Shown here one piece after another: positions 1 through 58,449 of a DNA stretch of 64,000 bases. Position 1 is the first letter of the stretch, and each line of letters opens with the position of its first letter. The DNA is taken from positions 1-64,000 of the IMG/VR virus record IMGVR_UViG_3300003324_000465; one strand, 5' to 3'. The notes beneath the pieces are model-generated. The model was not told the origin of the DNA. It ran no database searches and saw nothing but the letters and a program-made list of their open reading frames with translations. This DNA is from a virus. The translations under genes were made by a program, and so were the position numbers.

Positions 1-45
1 CTTTGAACGTCGATAATGTGGGTTCGAGTCCTACAACGTCAACCA
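1..45 (+). tRNA. tRNA-Gln(TTG), 5' part outside the window
   Basis: CT-TTG-AA anticodon loop, T arm GTGGG-TTCGAGT-CCTAC, ends in ACCA. Confidence 0.85.
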
Positions 46-11453: not shown

Positions 11454-11623
11454 ATGATCATGAATTATGTGTTATCTTAAACACAATGGATATTCCAGAG
11501 AATCGCAAAGATATTACAAACAAAGCAAATATACAATGGTTATTACGTAATATATCAATTCGCAATTTTGGGCATGCTAAATTAAATAATGTTATCGAAG
11601 AACTGAAAGGCCGGATGAAATGA
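11450..11623 (+). CDS. small hypothetical protein (57 aa, not in ORF track)
   Basis: AAAGGA RBS, ATGA overlaps at both ends. Confidence 0.6.
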   Translation: MNDHELCVILNTMDIPENRKDITNKANIQWLLRNISIRNFGHAKLNNVIEELKGRMK

Positions 11624-12927
11624 GCTATAGCGCATATATTGCAAGGTTACAGAATATCCGTAAACATCCAAATGCTGATCGCCTTATGTTGGCAGATGTG
11701 ATGGGTTATCAAGTTGTTATTGGATTGGATCATTTTGAAGGTGAGAAAGGAGTTTTCTTTCCCGCTGATGGTCAACTTAGTGAAGCTTTTGCAAAAGCAA
11801 ATGATCTGATTGGTTACATTGATCCCGCTACTGGCGAGCGTAAAGGTGGATTTTTTGATGAAAAGCGTAAGGTAAAAGCGCAGAAGTTTCGCGGTGTTAA
11901 AAGTGAGGGTTTCTGGATGCCTTTGTCTGCATTGGATTCATTTATTGATTTTTTGCAGCTAAATACATTTTCTTTGCCTTCAGAATACGATTACAAAGAA
12001 GGTGAAGCCATTACTGATGTCATGGGCAATGAAATTTGCCGTAGATATGAGACAGAAGAAACACGTAAAGCAGCGGCACAAAATAAACAAGGCACACGAG
12101 CAGAAACACGTTTCTTTCCAAAGCATTTAGAAACAGGACAATTTCTTATCGAAGCATCTAATATACCAATAGGATCACGTATTATTCTATCTGAAAAGCT
12201 TCATGGTACTTCTCATAGAGAAGGTAAAACATGGATAGATGTTTCATTACCATGGTATAAACGATTTGTTAATTGGATAATGCGCCGCGATTATTATCCA
12301 AAGAAGCAATTAGCGCATTTGATCGGTACTCGCAACACAACATTATCAGAAACATCAAAAGACTATCATGGAGACAAGTCATTTCGTTACAAAGCGGCAC
12401 AATCTCATATGCCATTAAATGACGGTGAATTGCTTTACGGTGAGATTGTAGGGTATACTTCTAATGGACAGCTTATTATGCCCGCGCATAATAATGCCAA
12501 GACAAAAGATAAAGAAGTAACAAAACAGTATGGTACTGAAATGCGTTATACCTATGGTACGCAAAAAGGCGAATCAAGGCTCTATGCGTATCGTATAGCA
12601 GTAATGAACGAGCAGGGACTTGCACGCGAATTGTCATATGATGAATTTGTACAACGTGCGCAAGAATTAGGCGTTAGAACCGTACCTGTTATTGCTAACT
12701 TTACATATGATGGTAATATTGAATCTCTAACATCACAGATACCATTATTAGCAGATGGACATTCTGTACTAGATCCTAATCATATTATGGAAGGCGTTGT
12801 ACTGCGTATTGAAACACCTAATAATGGGCGTATCTATTTTCTAAAATACAAATCTTTCTTATTCCGCGTGCTGGAAGGTATTGCAAAAGAAGATGATACC
12901 TATGTAGATACAGAGGAAGCAAATTAA
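11620..12927 (+). CDS. RNA ligase, Rnl2/DRB0094-like
   Basis: HPNADRL N-terminus, motif I EKLHGT, YGE, EGVV and LKYKS. Confidence 0.9.
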   Translation: MSYSAYIARLQNIRKHPNADRLMLADVMGYQVVIGLDHFEGEKGVFFPADGQLSEAFAKANDLIGYIDPATGERKGGFFDEKRKVKAQKFRGVKSEGFWMPLSALDSFIDFLQLNTFSLPSEYDYKEGEAITDVMGNEICRRYETEETRKAAAQNKQGTRAETRFFPKHLETGQFLIEASNIPIGSRIILSEKLHGTSHREGKTWIDVSLPWYKRFVNWIMRRDYYPKKQLAHLIGTRNTTLSETSKDYHGDKSFRYKAAQSHMPLNDGELLYGEIVGYTSNGQLIMPAHNNAKTKDKEVTKQYGTEMRYTYGTQKGESRLYAYRIAVMNEQGLARELSYDEFVQRAQELGVRTVPVIANFTYDGNIESLTSQIPLLADGHSVLDPNHIMEGVVLRIETPNNGRIYFLKYKSFLFRVLEGIAKEDDTYVDTEEAN

Positions 12928-13846: not shown

Positions 13847-14521
13847 ATGAATAAAATACGTTATTGTATTCCTACACTTAATAGATTTGACCATTTACAA
13901 AAAGCGGTTATAGCCGCTAATACTGGTACACAAAAACCTGATGAAATTATCATTATTGATAATAGTGGTAATGGAGGGTCAATACCAGTTATGCAACCAT
14001 TATTACAACGCTATATGAATATTTATATTCTGCCGCAAACATATAATTTAGGTGTATCTAAGTCCTGGAATACATTTATGACCATGTATCCTGATGATAT
14101 GGTTATTATCGCAAATGATGATGTATTTGTACATACGCATGCTATTGAAAATATGGTAAGAGAGCGTCGATTTACTAGCGATACTACCATATTAACCGGA
14201 GCAAGTAATTCAGGAAACATGTTTTCATTATTTACTATAACACATAAAGCATTTGAGCATATAGGTCTGTTTGATGAGAAATTTTATCCCGGCTATTATG
14301 AAGATAATGATTATGCGCGAAGGGCTCTTTTGTTAGGGTATAAGCTTGTAGCATTAGATAATGTAACATATGACCATATTGGAAGTGCTACTATAGCCGC
14401 ATATGATGAGCAAAGAAAGCGAGATCATCATAGTGAATTTAGTAGATTAGGACAATATTATAGAGATAAATGGGGTGGTATGCCGGGACAGGAAGTATAC
14501 ACAATTCCATTTAATAAATAA
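13847..14521 (+). CDS. family 2 glycosyltransferase
   Basis: IPTLNR, IIDNS, NLGVSKSWN, NDD, GLFDE and YEDND. Confidence 0.9.
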   Translation: MNKIRYCIPTLNRFDHLQKAVIAANTGTQKPDEIIIIDNSGNGGSIPVMQPLLQRYMNIYILPQTYNLGVSKSWNTFMTMYPDDMVIIANDDVFVHTHAIENMVRERRFTSDTTILTGASNSGNMFSLFTITHKAFEHIGLFDEKFYPGYYEDNDYARRALLLGYKLVALDNVTYDHIGSATIAAYDEQRKRDHHSEFSRLGQYYRDKWGGMPGQEVYTIPFNK

Positions 14522-14537: not shown

Positions 14538-15182
14538 ATGCAACGTTTAAGGGATTTATACATTAAACTTAAATCTCAGAAAACACCCTTAACCCTTGCA
14601 GTTGTTGCACAAGCGTCCACAATTGCGATATGGATGACGCAAGAAGGACGTACAGGCTTCCCCGTACTGAATCTGGTTATAGCAAGTATAGCAGCATTTA
14701 GCATCGATCTTATTATCGTATCTACAGCTTTTTCAGAAAAGCGTAGTATTGCTGCCTGGATTCTTGCTTTAGCAACTTCTACAATTGCACTCGTGTTTTC
14801 AGCACTCATCGCTGTATACCTTTTTAGTCAAGACGGTACTATAACTCCATGGAATGTGTTACATGCCGCTTTTCCTATTCTCGTATACTTTTATAGCTGG
14901 TTTTTGTCTATCACCCTCCATGACAGAGAACAACACATGTTACACACCGAACAAAAGCTAAAAGAAGAAAAAGAGCTTAAAAGATTGCGCGATTTAGAAC
15001 GCATTCCGCATAATATACAAGAATATCGTATCAGTATTATTCGTAAGCTCATGAATAAGCAAATGAATGCTTCACAAATATATGATATTGTTGGAGGTAT
15101 GCGCGCTAAAGTATTGGAACAAATAAGAGAAATTCAGCAAGAATTGGGAATAAGTGATACAGATGATGTAGAACCAGCGTAG
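14538..15182 (+). CDS. 4-TM membrane protein with coiled coil and C-terminal HTH (DUF2637/Spd-like)
   Basis: four hydrophobic helices, LHAAFP, charged coiled coil, NASQIYDIVGGMRAKV HTH-like end. Confidence 0.6.
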   Translation: MQRLRDLYIKLKSQKTPLTLAVVAQASTIAIWMTQEGRTGFPVLNLVIASIAAFSIDLIIVSTAFSEKRSIAAWILALATSTIALVFSALIAVYLFSQDGTITPWNVLHAAFPILVYFYSWFLSITLHDREQHMLHTEQKLKEEKELKRLRDLERIPHNIQEYRISIIRKLMNKQMNASQIYDIVGGMRAKVLEQIREIQQELGISDTDDVEPA

Positions 15183-15189
15183 TATAATA

Positions 15190-15344
15190 TAGTACCACGA
15201 TAGTACCATGTAGTACATAGCGCGTACTATTTAGTACACAGGATTGATAATAGAAATGATAATTATCAAATCATTATCAATGTATCACTTCTATTATCAA
15301 ATTATCAATAAAACAGTACATATATAACATTGATAATTTGATAA
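15190..15344. repeat. array of phased TAGTAC and ATTATCAA repeats
   Basis: TAGTAC at 15190, 15201, 15211, 15232; ATTATCAA at 15262, 15273, 15293, 15301; inverted copies at 15244 and 15330. Confidence 0.85.
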
Positions 15345-15356
15345 GAAAGGTCATAC

Positions 15357-16577
15357 ATGCGTAAAGAAATACTACGATTGTATGCTATGGGCATTATTGT
15401 AACTATACTTGCACTATCTATTCCTGAAGTACAATTTCATATGCAAGCCGTTATGTATTCATCAGAAGCAAAATCAGTTATAACAGCAGTACAAAACAGT
15501 AGTGATTATTACGTAGATAAATCTGCACAGGCATTACAAGCTCTTATTCAATATATAAAGCCCGCAGATACTATCTATATAAATGGACGATCAATCGGAG
15601 CTATAGATACTACTAACGACTTCTCATTAAATCATGGGCAAAGTATTTCAGTAGAGCAATGTGAATCTATACTTGCATCATATAAATCACCCGCTGAAGG
15701 TACATGTAGTGATGCTATAGAATATGCGCAAAAACACAATATAGATTTTGCTTATGTGCTTTACATGTTCATAAAAGAATCAAGTGCAGGTATGAATAAA
15801 AATTGGGCGGGTATTAAACCAGATGGAAATACAACACATAATACAGGTAATATCATATGTGCAGGATATATAACATGTTTTGGTAGATTCCGTGATTATA
15901 CTTCATGGGATGAGGGATGGAAAGATCATATTGATCTCTTAGTAAATTACCGCGATTCACAAGGTGATAAAACCTTAGAAGAAGCTATAAATCGATGGGC
16001 ACCGCCTATCGAAAATGATACAAATGCCTATTATCAAGAAGGTGTAAAACAAATAACAAGTTGGCGTGAAATAAATACCCGCGCCAATATACCTATTACA
16101 CCTTCTGATATAAAACCTATAACAAAAAACATGGTACTACTAAGTGATTTTTATGCTAAAGGTATAGTATGGTGCTTTCAAGACGGGAGATGTCCAAAAG
16201 ATAAATATGGTAATCCACTAGGAGAAGGTCAACATTTTGGCGATGATTTTAAACTAGAAGTTGGTGAACCTGTATATGCTCCGGTAAATGGTACCTTTAT
16301 TAGTTGCGGCGCATATTCTGATCCTGCTAGAATAGGTGAGTATATTATATATTTAACATATGATAACTATGAGTTTTATAGTGGTCATTTGGCAAACTCT
16401 ATAGTATTCTGTCAAAAGAACGTAGGCGATCCGGTCATAGCAGGTGAGATAGTAGGTTATGGTAATGCGAATGTGGCGGGACCGCATACACATATACAAT
16501 TACGTAAAGATGGACAATTATTAGATTATATGCAGTATTATAATGAAAGGATACAAAATGATAAAGGAAGAAAATAA
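15357..16577 (+). CDS. membrane-anchored peptidoglycan hydrolase: glucosaminidase/lysozyme-like + M23 peptidase
   Basis: N-terminal TM; KESSAG..HNTGNI..YTSWDEG..WAPPIEND; M23 motifs HFGDD and GPHTH. Confidence 0.85.
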   Translation: MRKEILRLYAMGIIVTILALSIPEVQFHMQAVMYSSEAKSVITAVQNSSDYYVDKSAQALQALIQYIKPADTIYINGRSIGAIDTTNDFSLNHGQSISVEQCESILASYKSPAEGTCSDAIEYAQKHNIDFAYVLYMFIKESSAGMNKNWAGIKPDGNTTHNTGNIICAGYITCFGRFRDYTSWDEGWKDHIDLLVNYRDSQGDKTLEEAINRWAPPIENDTNAYYQEGVKQITSWREINTRANIPITPSDIKPITKNMVLLSDFYAKGIVWCFQDGRCPKDKYGNPLGEGQHFGDDFKLEVGEPVYAPVNGTFISCGAYSDPARIGEYIIYLTYDNYEFYSGHLANSIVFCQKNVGDPVIAGEIVGYGNANVAGPHTHIQLRKDGQLLDYMQYYNERIQNDKGRK

Positions 16578-17274
16578 AGGATGGCTTCATGCATTTTTCG
16601 ATACTATAGATATTGCTAGAAATATGTCAGAAGTAGAAAATGATGTAATCGAAGGTCCTTCTGGTGGAGGTGCTTTACTCTACGCGGTCGCTATGTTTGT
16701 TATGGCAGCAGTTACAGGAACATTGGCATATGTATTTGATCTTCAATCAACATGGGATGGTATGAATGCATTAACAATATTCATTATCCCGCAATTACCA
16801 GAATCACAAATACAAATATCGCAATGGCTTGGTTTAATCTTTACTATTGCTCCTACATTTACTCAAGCGTTCTCTGCTGGTTTAGCAAAAAGAAAGATAC
16901 CATTAGTGAAATGGATGGTTGTTGGTTTCACAATGTTTGATGTTGTAACTGATATTCCTAGAGCAATGTCATGGACATTAACATTACAGGCACAATTCAA
17001 TCAACTAGGTTTATTTGCATGGTTTGCACAGACAACATTTTTTGTTATGTGGCTGTTCCTGTCTACAATCGGATTTGAATTACTATTTGTTATCTTTTTC
17101 TGGGCGGGATTGTTATACACCGCTAAAGCTCTTGGGTATGAAAAGGCAACAAAACTATATAACACTATGCCTAAACTTAGCAATAACAATAAACATAGTA
17201 AACAGCCTAGCGTCAATACCACAAATATTCAAGATTTATTAAATAAAGCAAAAAATAACGAATCAGAAAGGTAA
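16543..17274 (+). CDS. polytopic membrane protein
   Basis: about 5 hydrophobic helices. Confidence 0.75.
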   Translation: MKGYKMIKEENKGWLHAFFDTIDIARNMSEVENDVIEGPSGGGALLYAVAMFVMAAVTGTLAYVFDLQSTWDGMNALTIFIIPQLPESQIQISQWLGLIFTIAPTFTQAFSAGLAKRKIPLVKWMVVGFTMFDVVTDIPRAMSWTLTLQAQFNQLGLFAWFAQTTFFVMWLFLSTIGFELLFVIFFWAGLLYTAKALGYEKATKLYNTMPKLSNNNKHSKQPSVNTTNIQDLLNKAKNNESER

Positions 17275-17277
17275 ACT

Positions 17278-18873
17278 ATGGAGCCGCAAGATGTTGATAA
17301 AATAGACGTGATCTATATACTCGGTAGTATAATTATAATAGCATACAGTACACCTATGGCCGTAGTATTAGCTTTGCCTATAGGCTTAATTCAATATAAA
17401 TTGCGGCGTTCACAATGGTTTCAAAATAAAACAGCCGAATTACATGGTCTTGTGGCAAAGCCTGTAGGTTTCTTACTTCCGCCACCTAAAAGCTCAGAAA
17501 CTAATGCATATACGGGTAAAACACAGAACTTACAACGCGAAGAAAGAAAAGCACTGCCTTTTTATATGCGTGTTAATTTGCCACAAGACCAGACTATTTA
17601 TGTGGACGATGTACAATCTAAGCCTGTAATAGCGCATAATGCAATACAAAACAATACAATACATATGCTATTAAAGAAAGCGCCTAGCTACTTTTCCTAT
17701 GAGAAATTACCTAATCCGCCTACGACTACTTCTATACCAATAGGATATGATTTATCGAATAAGTCTATTATGTGGATGGATTTAGCAAAAGATTTCGTAC
17801 ATGGTCTTGTAGCAGGTATGACAGGTACAGGTAAAGATGCGCTACTACGTTTGTGGTACGTGTATTTAACATCTTATAATCCTCCATCGGCCATCCAATT
17901 TATTATTCTTGATGGTAAGAATGAATGGATGTTACCCGCGCTGGCACAATCACCCTATATGTTCATTCCGCCTGCTGGAGGTGTTGATATAGTTAAAGAT
18001 GAGAAAGGTAGAAGAAAACTAGGCTCAACTCAGCGTATGGCTGAAAGTCTTGATAAAGTTTTTGATGAGATAGAAAGACGCCAAGAGTTATTTAATAAAG
18101 CGGGAGCTACGAACCTTGCATCCTATGTATCAAAAACTGGTAATACCCTACCACGGCTTGTTATTATTGCTACTGATGTAGGGGAAGATTTTAATGGTGA
18201 TCTGGAAACACTTGTCAGAATACTTACAATGAAGGCTCGGTCGTTTGGTATAAATCTTATTATTTCTATGCAAACTTCCAGCAAGCAAGACACTGGATGG
18301 CGTAGTAACCTATCACTTACAATGTCAGGTTATCAGGCGTTACATAGTGCAGATCAGCCGATAATGGGTATAAATGCAACAAATATACTTTATAGACCGT
18401 CTCAGCTTCCAAATCCAGAAGAAGACGACAGAGCTAAGGGTTTATTTGCAGTGCGTAGAGGATCATATCAAACTATTGTCAAAACTGCTCATTTAAATGA
18501 AGAGATATTTGAGCAATATATCCATAATGCCATTAAAGAACCTTCGCAGGATGAGTTATTAGTACAGCGTGCAATGGAAAAATACAATACGAGAATAAAA
18601 CATCAAAATACCATAACACCACTTGATCTTATAAATCAAGATTACCAAAGACCTGTACGAACACAAAAACAAGATAAACCAGAAAAAACGGAATATGAAT
18701 GGTTACTTACAAAGGAACAGCGCATGAACGTTATACAATGGGTTAAACAAGGCTGGAACAAAACAAAAATAATGCGCGACGGTCTTAGATATACATCTGG
18801 TGAATATTATACACGCTATAGCAGTGATGTAGATAAACTTATATATATAGTTAATAAAGTTACAAAACTATGA
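17278..18873 (+). CDS. FtsK/SpoIIIE-family ATPase with N-terminal TM and C-terminal HTH-like domain
   Basis: PIGYD, HGLVAGMTGTGKD, ILDGK, EIERR, PRLVII and ARSFGINLIISMQ. Confidence 0.85.
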   Translation: MEPQDVDKIDVIYILGSIIIIAYSTPMAVVLALPIGLIQYKLRRSQWFQNKTAELHGLVAKPVGFLLPPPKSSETNAYTGKTQNLQREERKALPFYMRVNLPQDQTIYVDDVQSKPVIAHNAIQNNTIHMLLKKAPSYFSYEKLPNPPTTTSIPIGYDLSNKSIMWMDLAKDFVHGLVAGMTGTGKDALLRLWYVYLTSYNPPSAIQFIILDGKNEWMLPALAQSPYMFIPPAGGVDIVKDEKGRRKLGSTQRMAESLDKVFDEIERRQELFNKAGATNLASYVSKTGNTLPRLVIIATDVGEDFNGDLETLVRILTMKARSFGINLIISMQTSSKQDTGWRSNLSLTMSGYQALHSADQPIMGINATNILYRPSQLPNPEEDDRAKGLFAVRRGSYQTIVKTAHLNEEIFEQYIHNAIKEPSQDELLVQRAMEKYNTRIKHQNTITPLDLINQDYQRPVRTQKQDKPEKTEYEWLLTKEQRMNVIQWVKQGWNKTKIMRDGLRYTSGEYYTRYSSDVDKLIYIVNKVTKL

Positions 18874-19076
18874 TAAAGAAAACAATATCGATACTTATTC
18901 TATTATATTTATTCTATAAATTAGATGTTGTGCCTATTGTTGTTGTTGTACAGCATTTGTTAGTGTACTGGAATATATTTATGTATACTATACTCACGCT
19001 TAAAGATAATCATCCGGTTATATACATGTTATTACCTTTCATACTTATATGGTTATTATTACAAAAGAATGCCTAG
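18870..19076 (+). CDS. small membrane protein
   Basis: strongly hydrophobic; ATGA overlap with the FtsK gene. Confidence 0.65.
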   Translation: MIKKTISILILLYLFYKLDVVPIVVVVQHLLVYWNIFMYTILTLKDNHPVIYMLLPFILIWLLLQKNA

Positions 19077-19515
19077 CTATAAAACACATGATAAGATAGC
19101 GTATATTTCTGTAGTACCTATTAGTTTACTTACAGCATATACGTTATCTTTATCCATACCAGATACATTTTTATTTGCGGGGGGATTTATTCTCACTAAT
19201 TATTATCTATCTCCTGATCTTGACACGTATAGTATAATGGTAAGACGATGGGGTTTTCTCTATCCTTTATGGATACCGTATAGACATGCTATTAAACATC
19301 GGTCATTATTTTCACACAGCGGCCCTCTGAGCGCTTTGATACGATTAACCTATATAACTATACCCTTGAGTCTTATAGGGCTTCTGGTAAATATTTCATT
19401 ATTTTTTATGGCTATAGAAAGCCATGCATTTTTATTATTTATACTATCTGCAATATTTTCGGATACATTGCATACCTTGACAGACAAGATATGGAGTAAG
19501 ATACATGCGAGATAA
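19069..19515 (+). CDS. DUF2227-like membrane metal-binding protein
   Basis: MPSYKTHD, SPDLD, HRSLFSH and LHTLTD. Confidence 0.8.
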   Translation: MPSYKTHDKIAYISVVPISLLTAYTLSLSIPDTFLFAGGFILTNYYLSPDLDTYSIMVRRWGFLYPLWIPYRHAIKHRSLFSHSGPLSALIRLTYITIPLSLIGLLVNISLFFMAIESHAFLLFILSAIFSDTLHTLTDKIWSKIHAR

Positions 19516-19764: not shown

Positions 19765-19965
19765 TTGTATATGTTACAGTTAGAATATTGGATGAAAAAG
19801 ATATGGAGTGTTGATAAAACGTGGAAAATTGCTTACGATGATGAAGGTGTGGTACTTTATAATAGTCGCGGGGATTATTTCAAATCAGCATCTTTAGAGC
19901 ATGCCATAGGTATGGTATACTATTTATATGCGGAATTACATAGAGAAGAAGGAGAAAATACATAA
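19765..19965 (+). CDS. hypothetical protein
   Basis: GAAAGGA RBS, TAATG coupling to the next gene. Confidence 0.55.
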   Translation: MYMLQLEYWMKKIWSVDKTWKIAYDDEGVVLYNSRGDYFKSASLEHAIGMVYYLYAELHREEGENT

Positions 19966-20741
19966 TGAATTTTGATAAGGTTCAGGATAGTGGTATACGA
20001 GAAGAATTTAGTACAGGGAGTAAACGTGATACACAGCAAGGTAAGGGAAATCCTAGTCTTATACCTATTGAACCTTTGCGTAGATTAGCAAAGCATTATG
20101 AAAACGGTGCTGTTAAATATGGTAAACGTAATTGGGAGAAAGGTCAACCATTATCACGGTATTATGATTCTGCTATGCGCCATATGTGGGCATATATGGA
20201 AGGTGATTACAACGAGGATCATTTAGCAGCAGCAGCGTGGAATATTTTTAGTATAATAGCAACACAAGAAAGGATAATAGCTGGTATATTACCGAAAGAA
20301 TTAGATGATATAGGAGCTATTCAAGCGTATCAAGATCATCTATTAGAAGAAGGTAGTAAACATTTTGATAAAGAACCAATAAACAAATCACAACCATTTA
20401 CAAGTATTAAATCACCTGATAATATCCGCGCCCAGAATATTCACACTGACCAAATACGAGCACAAGATATTAATAGCGTTACAGCTTTGGATGGTTTAAC
20501 AGATGAGCAATTACCTATCTATGGTATTACACTTTCTCGTGATGGTAAAGTTATAGGTAGGGCTGATACTGGATATATACGTAAGCATAAACAAACGGTA
20601 AAGGCCGCAGATGCTATAAAACTAGGCGAAGTTACTATAGGCGTTATTGTAGATACAACACAAGCAGAACAAGCATTACATACTTTTTCGGAAAAGCTAA
20701 ATGCTGTTGTTGATAAAACCAATACATTATGCAGTGATTGA
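19965..20741 (+). CDS. dATP/dGTP diphosphohydrolase (DUF5664-like) domain protein with C-terminal extension
   Basis: FSTGSKRD, GAVKYGKRNWEKG, SAMRH and EDHLAAAAWN. Confidence 0.85.
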   Translation: MNFDKVQDSGIREEFSTGSKRDTQQGKGNPSLIPIEPLRRLAKHYENGAVKYGKRNWEKGQPLSRYYDSAMRHMWAYMEGDYNEDHLAAAAWNIFSIIATQERIIAGILPKELDDIGAIQAYQDHLLEEGSKHFDKEPINKSQPFTSIKSPDNIRAQNIHTDQIRAQDINSVTALDGLTDEQLPIYGITLSRDGKVIGRADTGYIRKHKQTVKAADAIKLGEVTIGVIVDTTQAEQALHTFSEKLNAVVDKTNTLCSD

Positions 20742-21533: not shown

Positions 21534-22229
21534 TTATCTATAATCTATTATATTTATACCTTTTATGTTATTGCATCTCTCACATAGCGGTTGAATGTTA
21601 TCAATAGTATTGTTACCACCTTTTGATAGCGGTATAACATGATCTGCTGTTAATTTGCATGTAGTACAGCCACAAGATAAACATGTATTATTATACTTAG
21701 TGTAAAGTTCCTGAAGTTCTTTACCTGTAAATGACCCTCTTTTCTCATGTATTCTTCTACGATGTTTAAATGCTTTTCTAGTTAATCTGCATTTTTCTGT
21801 ATTATAACACTTTATACGGCGTAATCTTTCACTACCGCTGTATTTACGCGGCCTGCCTTTCTTATTTATTTTAGGTTTCTTGCGATTACATACTGTACAT
21901 ATGCCTTTTTCACTTATAACTACACGCGCTTTTAGCTTTTTACAAGTAGAGCAATATGCTGTATATGATCCTTTTGGTATATACCCATATTCTATGCTTT
22001 TTAACCTACGATCTTCTGGCGAAAGTATTTGTTTTGGTTTAGAAACACGCTTGTAGTTACCCTTACCTACACCTTTAATTTTATTATTGTCTCGTTTCCA
22101 TTGCTTTGTGTATGCTCTTTTACATATATAACAATATGAATCTAAACCATTTTTCTTCTTCGTGTTAGCTGGAAATTCTTTGGAGTATTTCCATTCTCTG
22201 CACCGCGAACATCTGTGTTTATTATTCAT
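21534..22229 (-). CDS. HNH endonuclease with N-terminal zinc fingers (homing type)
   Basis: CSRC..CYIC; CLSCG, DHVIPLSKGG, NIQPLCERCN. Confidence 0.9.
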   Translation of the reverse strand: MNNKHRCSRCREWKYSKEFPANTKKKNGLDSYCYICKRAYTKQWKRDNNKIKGVGKGNYKRVSKPKQILSPEDRRLKSIEYGYIPKGSYTAYCSTCKKLKARVVISEKGICTVCNRKKPKINKKGRPRKYSGSERLRRIKCYNTEKCRLTRKAFKHRRRIHEKRGSFTGKELQELYTKYNNTCLSCGCTTCKLTADHVIPLSKGGNNTIDNIQPLCERCNNIKGINIIDYR

Positions 22230-57100: not shown

Positions 57101-57251
57101 ATCCTAATAATTCATTCACTTCGCGAGCATAATCATTGATTGTATCAAGAAGTATTTTACGTAATTGCGATGTTAATAATCCGTATTTCTCTAAACGTAA
57201 TAATAATTCTTTTATATATTTACCGCGAATATTATCTAACTGTACTTTCAT
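57087..57251 (-). CDS. small hypothetical protein
   Basis: GAAGGA RBS before MKVQLD. Confidence 0.5.
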   Translation of the reverse strand: MKVQLDNIRGKYIKELLLRLEKYGLLTSQLRKILLDTINDYAREVNELLGYEDE

Positions 57252-58449
57252 TAAGTAATCCTTCAAATATAGCATGAAATTGATTAGCTATACTTGACCA
57301 TCTGTACTTATCTTGCGTAATCAGATCATATCCTTTCTTTCCCATATGTAAACGATATGTTTCATCTCTATATAGTTTATCTAGTGCTTCTATCGTACAC
57401 TTCATTTCTGGTACACCGCCTATGGTATTAATACCTTTAGGTGTAATATAAGGTATATTATTTATATCAATATATTCTACACCACCATTAGCCCATTCTT
57501 GTAAAGCTGAATGACGTGGTATAATGTTAGGTATGCCACAAGCCATTGATTCTGCTGTTGTAAGACCCCATCCTTCGCCCATGCTGGTACTTAGTTTAAC
57601 ATCGGCTAGATTATAAAGATATACTAACTTGTCTAATGGGATACCCTCTCTTGGATGTATATAGTGTGATGTGAAGATAATTCGATCATGAATATGTGGC
57701 GTTTTTCCGTATTCTCGTATGTATTCTGCATCTATATATTTTCCTAATTGACCGAGATCATAACCTTCATCCTTTAATGCTCCATGATAATAAAAATACA
57801 CATTTTTTGGTATATCTCTCGTTCTCACCCATTCTGCAAAATAGTATAATCCAAGATCAATTCTTTTTCTTATACTGTTACGATCTACCATTTGAACAAT
57901 ATACCAGTCTTCTGGAATACCAGTTACATTACGTACTTCTTTTTTATATAATGGGCGAAATAATTGTGTATCTACACCATGCGGTATATCTGACATAGGC
58001 ACAGTTACACCAGCATAAGATAATTCTCTTTGTGCAAATTTTGTATAAGGTATAATGAAATCGAATGCATTTAACCGTTCACCAAACATCGGTTTAATGT
58101 TTTTAGCATCTACTGGCGTATATCCTACCTTCTTACCATATGTTTCAGAAAGTAAAGGGCTAAATTCAGACAATACCCATGGATCGTTAATAAACAATAC
58201 AATATCTGGTTTTATATGCTGAGATAATTCTACAATTCTACCAATACCGTAAAAATCACCATATTGCACTGCTTGTGGATTCCAATGCCGCGCCTCTTTT
58301 AATATTTCATGAGGATCGCCATAATAATTAGTTGCAAGTACATCTATTTCCCATCTATCTTTTAAATGATGTATAAGATTGTGTGTTACTTGCGCAAATC
58401 CAGTAGATACTGCCGAATCTGCAACTATAAATAATTTCCTTTTATCCAT
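57232..58449 (-). CDS. GT-B (family 4) glycosyltransferase
   Basis: TGFAQV, PHGVD, RKRID, YNLADV and EGWGLTTAESMACG. Confidence 0.92.
   Translation of the reverse strand: MDKRKLFIVADSAVSTGFAQVTHNLIHHLKDRWEIDVLATNYYGDPHEILKEARHWNPQAVQYGDFYGIGRIVELSQHIKPDIVLFINDPWVLSEFSPLLSETYGKKVGYTPVDAKNIKPMFGERLNAFDFIIPYTKFAQRELSYAGVTVPMSDIPHGVDTQLFRPLYKKEVRNVTGIPEDWYIVQMVDRNSIRKRIDLGLYYFAEWVRTRDIPKNVYFYYHGALKDEGYDLGQLGKYIDAEYIREYGKTPHIHDRIIFTSHYIHPREGIPLDKLVYLYNLADVKLSTSMGEGWGLTTAESMACGIPNIIPRHSALQEWANGGVEYIDINNIPYITPKGINTIGGVPEMKCTIEALDKLYRDETYRLHMGKKGYDLITQDKYRWSSIANQFHAIFEGLLNESTVR

Follow-up and report, generated by a model that had tools for sequence, protein, structure and literature searches.

The stretch of DNA analysed here, referred to below as the window, comprises the first 64 kb (64,000 nucleotides) of the 106,876-bp IMG/VR virus record IMGVR_UViG_3300003324_000465. 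Our analysis concerns a block of six co-directional genes at 14538-19515, m1 to m6, which encodes a wall hydrolase, an ATPase of the FtsK/SpoIIIE type and several other membrane proteins. Two short-repeat arrays occupy the 174-bp spacer between m1 and m2. An initial annotation, made from the sequence of the window alone, had likened this block to the TraB/clt/Spd modules that move DNA in Streptomyces. The genes and arrays are as follows.

m1, 14538-15182, plus strand: 214-amino-acid (aa) orphan membrane protein with 3-4 transmembrane (TM) segments and a basic helical C-terminal tail
Array A, 15190-15238, no strand: TAGTAC[AC], 4-5 copies in 43 bp, about 10-11 bp apart, plus one inverted copy
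Array B, 15244-15345, no strand: ATTATCAA/TTGATAAT octamers, six exact copies and one degenerate copy, in both orientations, just upstream of m2
m2, 15357-16577, plus strand: 406-aa protein with an N-terminal TM anchor, a GH73 glucosaminidase domain and an M23 endopeptidase domain
m3, 16543-17274 (start possibly 16558), plus strand: orphan polytopic membrane protein of about 240 aa
m4, 17278-18873, plus strand: 531-aa ATPase of the FtsK/SpoIIIE type with a TM hairpin and a C-terminal three-helix, helix-turn-helix (HTH)-like domain
m5, 18870-19076, plus strand: small 68-aa protein with 2 TM segments
m6, 19069-19515, plus strand: 148-aa DUF2227 membrane protein, a putative metal-binding hydrolase

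Components of the module

Neighbouring genes from m2 to m6 overlap or stand 3 nt apart, indicating that they form one translationally coupled operon. In a hydropathy scan, TM segments were found in all six module proteins and in none of seven flanking proteins. The tight co-directional membrane block of the initial annotation is thus borne out by the open reading frames, the TM scan and the Pfam matches.

The m2 sequence matches Pfam Glucosaminidase (PF01832, 3.1e-7) and Peptidase_M23 (PF01551, 2.8e-9), both above the gathering score, as expected for the TM-anchored two-domain hydrolase that had been annotated here. The sequence shows HxxxD (HFGDD) and HxH (HTH), the motifs of M23, as well as the catalytic Glu of GH73 (IKESS). 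Since these catalytic motifs are kept, both domains look active. The protein matches endolysin PHROGs and has a single partial match among 50,697 phage records. Its design is that of the hydrolases of Gram-positive conjugation systems, known from CwlT, TcpG and PrgK.

Three proteins, m1, m3 and m5, belong to no family in Pfam, PHROGs or NCBIfam. The 24 homologues found for m1 share 40-73% identity, and the polar residues D57, K68, H109 and D129 are invariant within the TM helices; a profile search of viral contigs with m1 returned nothing. Five of the 24 lie on contigs equal in size to ATPase-bearing ones (107699, 5153, 18234, 18279 and 21172), and the co-occurrence of m1 and the ATPase in these relatives is read from the equal sizes. 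m1 had been described as a 4-TM protein with a C-terminal HTH. The membrane part stands, with 3-4 TM helices; the HTH part reduces to a basic, helical C-terminus, and HTH_23 is weakly matched in one family member (E 0.21). For m3, 23 database homologues were found, in which D18, D61, D128 and D132 are invariant. The AlphaFold2 (AF2) model of m3 contains four long helices (predicted local distance difference test score, pLDDT, 82), and an ESM Atlas search returned just unnamed clusters, all below 0.9. The small TM protein and the DUF2227 protein annotated at the end of the block are both there: m5 has 2 TM segments, and m6 matches PF09988 with an E value of 2.6e-28 and 99.5 bits against a gathering cut-off of 25.

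The m4 ATPase

The m4 product matches FtsK_SpoIIIE in Pfam above the gathering score (5e-10) and phrog_1358 (1.5e-20). Both the sequence and the fold of its motor domain place it in the FtsK/SpoIIIE superfamily (PF01580). The AF2 model (pLDDT 77) shows a two-helix N-terminal hairpin, a disordered linker, an ATPase core spanning residues 120-420 and a three-helix C-terminal bundle. The bundle is modelled with pLDDT >90 and is kept in 29 of 31 relatives. In a Foldseek search, the top match was TcpA (1.3e-11), followed by FtsK (5.7e-11) and EccC (1e-9). In a structural ranking, FtsK on DNA came first, with the highest identity, and EccC and TcpA followed within about 2 Z units.

We conclude that m4 branches deeply and separately within the FtsK/TcpA/EssC clade, outside the TraB, FtsK proper, TcpA and EssC families. 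It is clearly not a packaging-type (HerA/A32) ATPase, in agreement with the initial annotation, and groups with the FtsK/TcpA/EssC clade rather than the HerA/VirB4/packaging clade.

In the m4 family alignment, the Walker A motif reads GxGKD with an invariant Asp, and the Walker B strand ends in [ST]D (Ala in two members). The register was set by a conserved (L/M)P six residues upstream, based on the HMMER alignment to YukB (…MPHLFLISDE…). T299 aligns with the Walker B Asp and D300 with the catalytic Glu. From this alignment, the hydroxyl and the carboxylate that hold Mg2+ appear to be swapped between Walker A and Walker B, and a carboxylate stays at the catalytic position. Because the changes are conserved and reciprocal, the m4 ATPase is probably active, its site apparently being compensated rather than decayed.

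Conservation of the module

About 30 full-length homologues of m4 were found, with 36-79% identity, all metagenomic. In a profile search, 1.84 billion representatives yielded 142 proteins at E <= 1e-30; roughly 75 of these have a single domain and a length of 400-700 aa. The module has no counterpart among the 50,697 phage records.

Its gene order could be followed in related loci on other contigs. L005 and L006 preserve the order hydrolase-m3-ATPase-m5-DUF2227 at 30-43% identity, as do L007 and L009 over the part of the module that these incomplete contigs cover. L005 in addition keeps an upstream GT2 gene and a membrane protein at the m1 position. A gene for a GIY-YIG homing endonuclease (L005:5226-5810; PF01541, 5e-9) lies there between the m1-position and hydrolase genes. 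In L004, a siphovirus contig of 53% G+C (GC) content with PolA and tail genes, an M23 protein, a membrane protein and the ATPase are found, and a DUF2227 gene further on. This conservation of gene order across deep divergence confirms that the cluster is kept as a unit, a point on which the reading of the initial annotation depended.

The m2 homologues of L005 and L006, at the matching position, share 38% identity with m2 (E 2e-46 and 7e-40) and differ in the C-terminal domain. A VanW-like assignment of the tail of these two hydrolases was dropped, as Pfam gave no support. m5 is kept in position in L006 and L007 (E 7e-6 and 3e-5), and its positional equivalent in L005 has 71 aa. m6 is kept downstream of the ATPase in L004, L005, L006 and L007 (E 1e-20 to 1e-31), and the L004 protein is a PF09988 member. 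The gene for m3 lies directly upstream of the ATPase gene in L003, L005, L006, L007, L008 and L009. In L003 (a phage contig of 57% GC, with a tyrosine integrase just upstream) and L008 (70% GC), only the m3-ATPase pair survives. Therefore, m3 and the ATPase are the core of the module; around it, the hydrolase, m1, m5 and DUF2227 form a shell, stable within the closer clade.

The closest cellular relative found is Haur_5007, on plasmid pHAU01 of Herpetosiphon aurantiacus, a filamentous member of the Chloroflexota. A stringent-pattern locus search of genome contigs gave no relative, yet Haur_5007 still turned up in a tblastn search of plasmids. In hhalign, it aligns with the m4 family at E 4e-35, sharing GKD, DGK and WRSQ, and the C-terminal domain is aligned as well. 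Its Walker motifs are GKD with SE. Haur_5006 is a 211-aa polytopic gene overlapping the start of Haur_5007 (L013:8186-10236). We considered it as an m3 homologue and rejected this, as hhalign against the m3 profile found no similarity; it is an analogue in position only. The annotation near Haur_5007 includes neither a hydrolase nor a DUF2227 gene, and a ParM-like assignment of Haur_5009 was dropped for want of Pfam support. Weaker m4 matches occur in filamentous Chloroflexota, cyanobacteria and actinomycetes.

Repeat arrays

The repeat array reported in the initial annotation is real and consists of two clusters. The ATTATCAA/TTGATAAT octamer of array B occurs 28 times in the genome, and six of the copies fall within 87 bp (15244-15337). 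Arrays A and B are each the sole cluster of their motif in 106,876 bp, far above chance.

Arrays were also found in the relatives. In L005, three to five ACTGTAAnnCTAC copies with 11-bp phasing lie directly 3' of the m1-position gene, followed by a consensus TTGACA-17-TATAAT promoter and then a palindrome containing ATTATC. In L003, the 611-bp gap between m3 and the ATPase holds seven copies of a palindrome-bearing 32-mer in three 199-bp units. These units stand in tandem at L003:8880-9476, with two of the 32-mer copies in each, and the palindrome of the 32-mer is AAGCCACT-AG-AGTGGCTT. An array is therefore present in all three module loci with a readable spacer, and its sequence differs in each. 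By analogy with TraB-clt, FtsK-KOPS and plasmid centromeres, the differing arrays fit a co-evolving protein-DNA recognition site. Array B may also be the operator or promoter of the m2-m6 operon; the promoter and palindrome of L005 stand at the corresponding position.

The phage genome and its lysis genes

The record is described as having a direct terminal repeat, a 25-bp overlap between window positions 1-25 and the genome end that begins inside a tRNA-like sequence. Because the overlap is only 25 bp, we regard the assembly as closed circular rather than as bearing a physical terminal repeat. The genome has a GC content of 35% and includes the following features.

Replication and nucleotide metabolism, genome-encoded: family A DNA polymerase, DnaB-type helicase, primase, ribonucleotide reductases
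Virion, genome-encoded: large terminase, portal, tail proteins
tRNAs, in the window: five
Lysis cassette, genome 86307-88285 (L012:10307-12285): directly after the terminase and portal genes

With these structural and replication genes present and no integrase or resolvase found in the genome, the phage looks like a virulent tailed phage. The 50,697 phage records contain no relative of it at the nucleotide level and one weak match to its terminase. Its best DNA polymerase match is to a Pseudanabaena phage, at 28.8% identity. The large terminase is 861 aa long (genome 82220-84805; L012:6220-8805), and the terminase profile covers residues 497-833 only.

The lysis cassette consists of an amidase endolysin (86307-87092), a 118-aa holin-like protein whose several hydrophobic stretches were read by eye, a TM coiled-coil protein with a weak Rz-like/spanin-like match (6e-5), and a fourth membrane protein. 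Since this separate endolysin-holin set lies at 86.3-88.3 kb, the module is not the lysis cassette of the phage, and the early view that its hydrolase stands outside a standard lysis cassette was correct.

The module lies inside a plus-strand block at 1-21.5 kb, together with tRNAs, an RNA ligase, glycosyltransferases and a dNTP pyrophosphohydrolase. The RNA ligase gene is at 11620-12927 and the glycosyltransferase genes are at 13847-14521 and 57232-58449. Just downstream of the module, the product of 19965-20741 carries a dATP/dGTP diphosphohydrolase domain (PF18909, 3e-21) at its N-terminus. The diphosphohydrolase, the two glycosyltransferases and the RNA ligase hint at nucleotide-pool editing or DNA modification. 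A Cys-rich protein of 231 aa with an HNH-like motif at its end is encoded on the minus strand at 21534-22229, where the plus-strand block switches to a minus-strand block.

Comparison with known systems

The module resembles the Streptomyces TraB/clt/Spd system in having one FtsK-type ATPase that is anchored in the membrane and ends in a DNA-reading-like domain, a short-repeat array beside the gene, small membrane proteins, and no relaxase or VirB4. The absence of the last two, noted in the initial annotation for the window, holds for the whole genome, in which the AAA_10/VirB4, CagE_TrbE_VirB and Relaxase models had no match. The likeness does not extend to family membership. m4 scores 18.1 bits against a cut-off of 800 for NF041214, so it is not a member of TraB, and its Walker motifs are rewired. 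The suggested Spd proteins were not found either: DUF2637 (PF10935) had no match at E <= 1 in the six-frame translation of the genome or in the 24 m1 relatives. Unlike the TraB system, the module sits in a virulent-looking tailed phage of 35% GC and has an extra GH73+M23 hydrolase and DUF2227 protein.

Gram-positive type IV secretion systems (Tcp and ICEBs1) likewise combine an FtsK-like, coupling-type ATPase with a membrane-anchored two-domain wall hydrolase. Compared with the Tcp system of pCW3, the module has no VirB4-like TcpF, VirB8-like TcpC or relaxase, and its hydrolase carries M23 rather than NlpC/P60. TcpH is much larger than m3, for which no known family gave a detectable match. Compared with FtsK and SpoIIIE, m4 has no gamma domain (PF09397) and no FtsK_alpha family match, its Walker motifs are non-canonical, and in its 531 aa a two-helix anchor replaces the four TM helices and long linker. 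EssC and EccC share with m4 a TM hairpin followed by the ATPase and give the best sequence-profile scores. They differ in that m4 has one ATPase domain instead of three, no FHA domains, a C-terminal HTH-like domain and adjacent DNA repeats, and scores 44.8 bits against a cut-off of 778.

Among phages, tblastn with m4 gave matches in 181 records. The FtsK/SpoIIIE-like proteins of phrog_1358 and phrog_3551, from Bacillus and other phages, are also phage-encoded and have no assigned role. They share only 25-30% identity with m4 over the ATPase core and exceed it in length, the protein of phage Troll having 752 aa. The Troll annotation shows neither a hydrolase nor a DUF2227 gene next to the ATPase, whose neighbours are mostly unnamed hypothetical proteins.

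Discussion

Based on these data, we suggest that the block encodes a membrane-embedded DNA-translocation complex of the FtsK/SpoIIIE/TraB/TcpA kind, which would load on the phage's own repeat array. We put forward this explanation tentatively and give it a little under an even chance. The substrate of such a complex is probably the phage's own double-stranded DNA. What the data show are the components themselves, that all of them are membrane proteins and are kept together in relatives, the FtsK-type fold, and arrays that are unique in the genome and recur in other loci. The complex, its DNA substrate, its loading site and its ATPase activity are inferred.

In the proposed complex, a ring of m4 would be anchored in the cytoplasmic membrane via its N-terminal helical hairpin. 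The C-terminal three-helix domain of m4, the cytoplasmic tail of m1, or both, could read the short phased repeats and so load the motor on phage DNA. m3, the constant partner, would form the membrane passage with m1 and m5. m2, anchored outside the membrane, would open the peptidoglycan locally, and m6 (DUF2227) may be an accessory protein, perhaps a hydrolytic one. The DNA could be headed for a neighbouring cell, for a daughter cell or for a forespore; alternatively, the complex could pull in the rest of an entering genome. In a far-reaching version, a conjugation-like pump with a Walker-swapped motor would act on a centromere- or clt-like array and transfer the genome across a septum or envelope without virions. 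We consider this version unlikely.

Several observations weigh against a DNA-translocation complex. Firstly, m1, m3 and m5 match no known family or fold. Secondly, m4 lacks the canonical Walker A Ser/Thr and Walker B Asp-Glu. Thirdly, its C-terminal bundle, which lies where the initial annotation placed an HTH-like domain, has no sequence match to any solved DNA-binding domain. Fourthly, autoregulatory operators or promoter elements of the operon fit the arrays equally well. A sigma-70 promoter scan of the region did no better than shuffled sequence. The genome as a whole showed no polar motif like KOPS or SRS, and no strand-polar octamer linked to the arrays. Finally, sequence profiles put the protein-secreting EssC/EccC first for all 31 family members (best 3.6e-19), followed by FtsK (1.2e-9), TraB (1.4e-8, with 18 of 31 relatives matching) and CedB, where the three domains of the EssC models inflate their scores and all m4 scores are far below the family cut-offs. 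A profile search of the PDB likewise ranked EccC and YukB above FtsK, and outside the family, the closest proteins of the large library have several domains and a size like that of EssC. The profile rankings, though biased, bar a clean assignment of m4 as a DNA translocase. The initial annotation had named a grouping with EccC/EssC as a point against its reading, and the result here is divided: sequence profiles favour EssC/EccC, and structure puts FtsK just ahead of EccC and TcpA, within about 2 Z units.

Because of this ranking, we keep open a role in a protein-translocating or membrane-remodelling machine, which would export a protein of the phage or reshape the envelope. In it, m4 would be related to the type VII secretion ATPases but have a single domain, and the repeats would be transcriptional operators. 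The TM hairpin-ATPase topology, which equals that of EssC, and the closeness of EccC to FtsK in the structural ranking are consistent with it. Against it, m4 has a single ATPase domain and no FHA domains, no WXG100-like small helical protein is evident by eye among the neighbours, the HTH-like C-terminus is conserved, arrays recur within the module at three loci, and FtsK on DNA is the top structural match. We judge such a role improbable.

In the more specific version of the initial annotation, the module would pump replicated phage DNA into neighbouring cells of a host that grows in filaments or chains, in a TraB/Spd-like manner and without virions. All support for the translocation complex applies here too. 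Haur_5007, with the same GKD and C-terminal domain, comes from the plasmid of a filamentous bacterium, the weaker m4 matches include filamentous groups, and the best DNA polymerase match is that of the Pseudanabaena phage. However, m4 is not a TraB member and Spd/DUF2637 proteins are missing, and both the virion and the lysis apparatus of the phage are complete. Hints of the host are weak and point in different directions: the C-terminal stretch of the endolysin reads by eye as a putative wall-binding domain, set against the weak spanin-like match in the lysis cassette. Modular endolysins with a C-terminal wall-binding domain are usual for Gram-positive hosts. By analogy with TraB, virion-free spread may occur, and we think it quite improbable.

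An early entry or exclusion device, which pulls in the remaining infecting genome or blocks or expels superinfecting phage DNA, is in our view also quite unlikely. In its favour, the position of the module in the plus-strand block, away from the structural and lysis genes, makes it look like part of an early or middle gene block, and all its products are membrane proteins. Nevertheless, the record closes on the 25-bp overlap, which marks neither the physical ends of the genome nor the DNA that enters first. Once the tail has crossed the wall, there is no obvious need for a wall hydrolase produced within the cell, and no known exclusion family was matched in Pfam, PHROGs or NCBIfam. Finally, an accessory lysis or wall-remodelling cassette, in which a signal-anchored lysin acts with holin-like proteins and the ATPase is an unrelated neighbour, would suit the endolysin PHROG matches of m2, the small membrane proteins m3 and m5 and the lysin-like swapping of the m2 C-terminal domain in relatives, and is very improbable given the separate endolysin/holin-like cassette beside the portal gene and the linkage of ATPase, m3 and DUF2227 across genomes of 35-57% GC.

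We found no description of the operon, of m1 and m3, or of DUF2227 in the searchable literature. Phage genes of the FtsK/SpoIIIE-like kind are widely annotated, and their role is unassigned. Here, one of them is found in a conserved operon with a hydrolase, membrane partners and cis repeats, which turns the module into a concrete, testable hypothesis of a phage-made DNA conduit. For P-loop enzymology, the reciprocal Walker A/B change (GKD with [ST]D) is interesting in its own right. If the translocation complex does move phage DNA between compartments, it would provide a virion-independent route, and phages and conjugative elements would be less sharply distinct.

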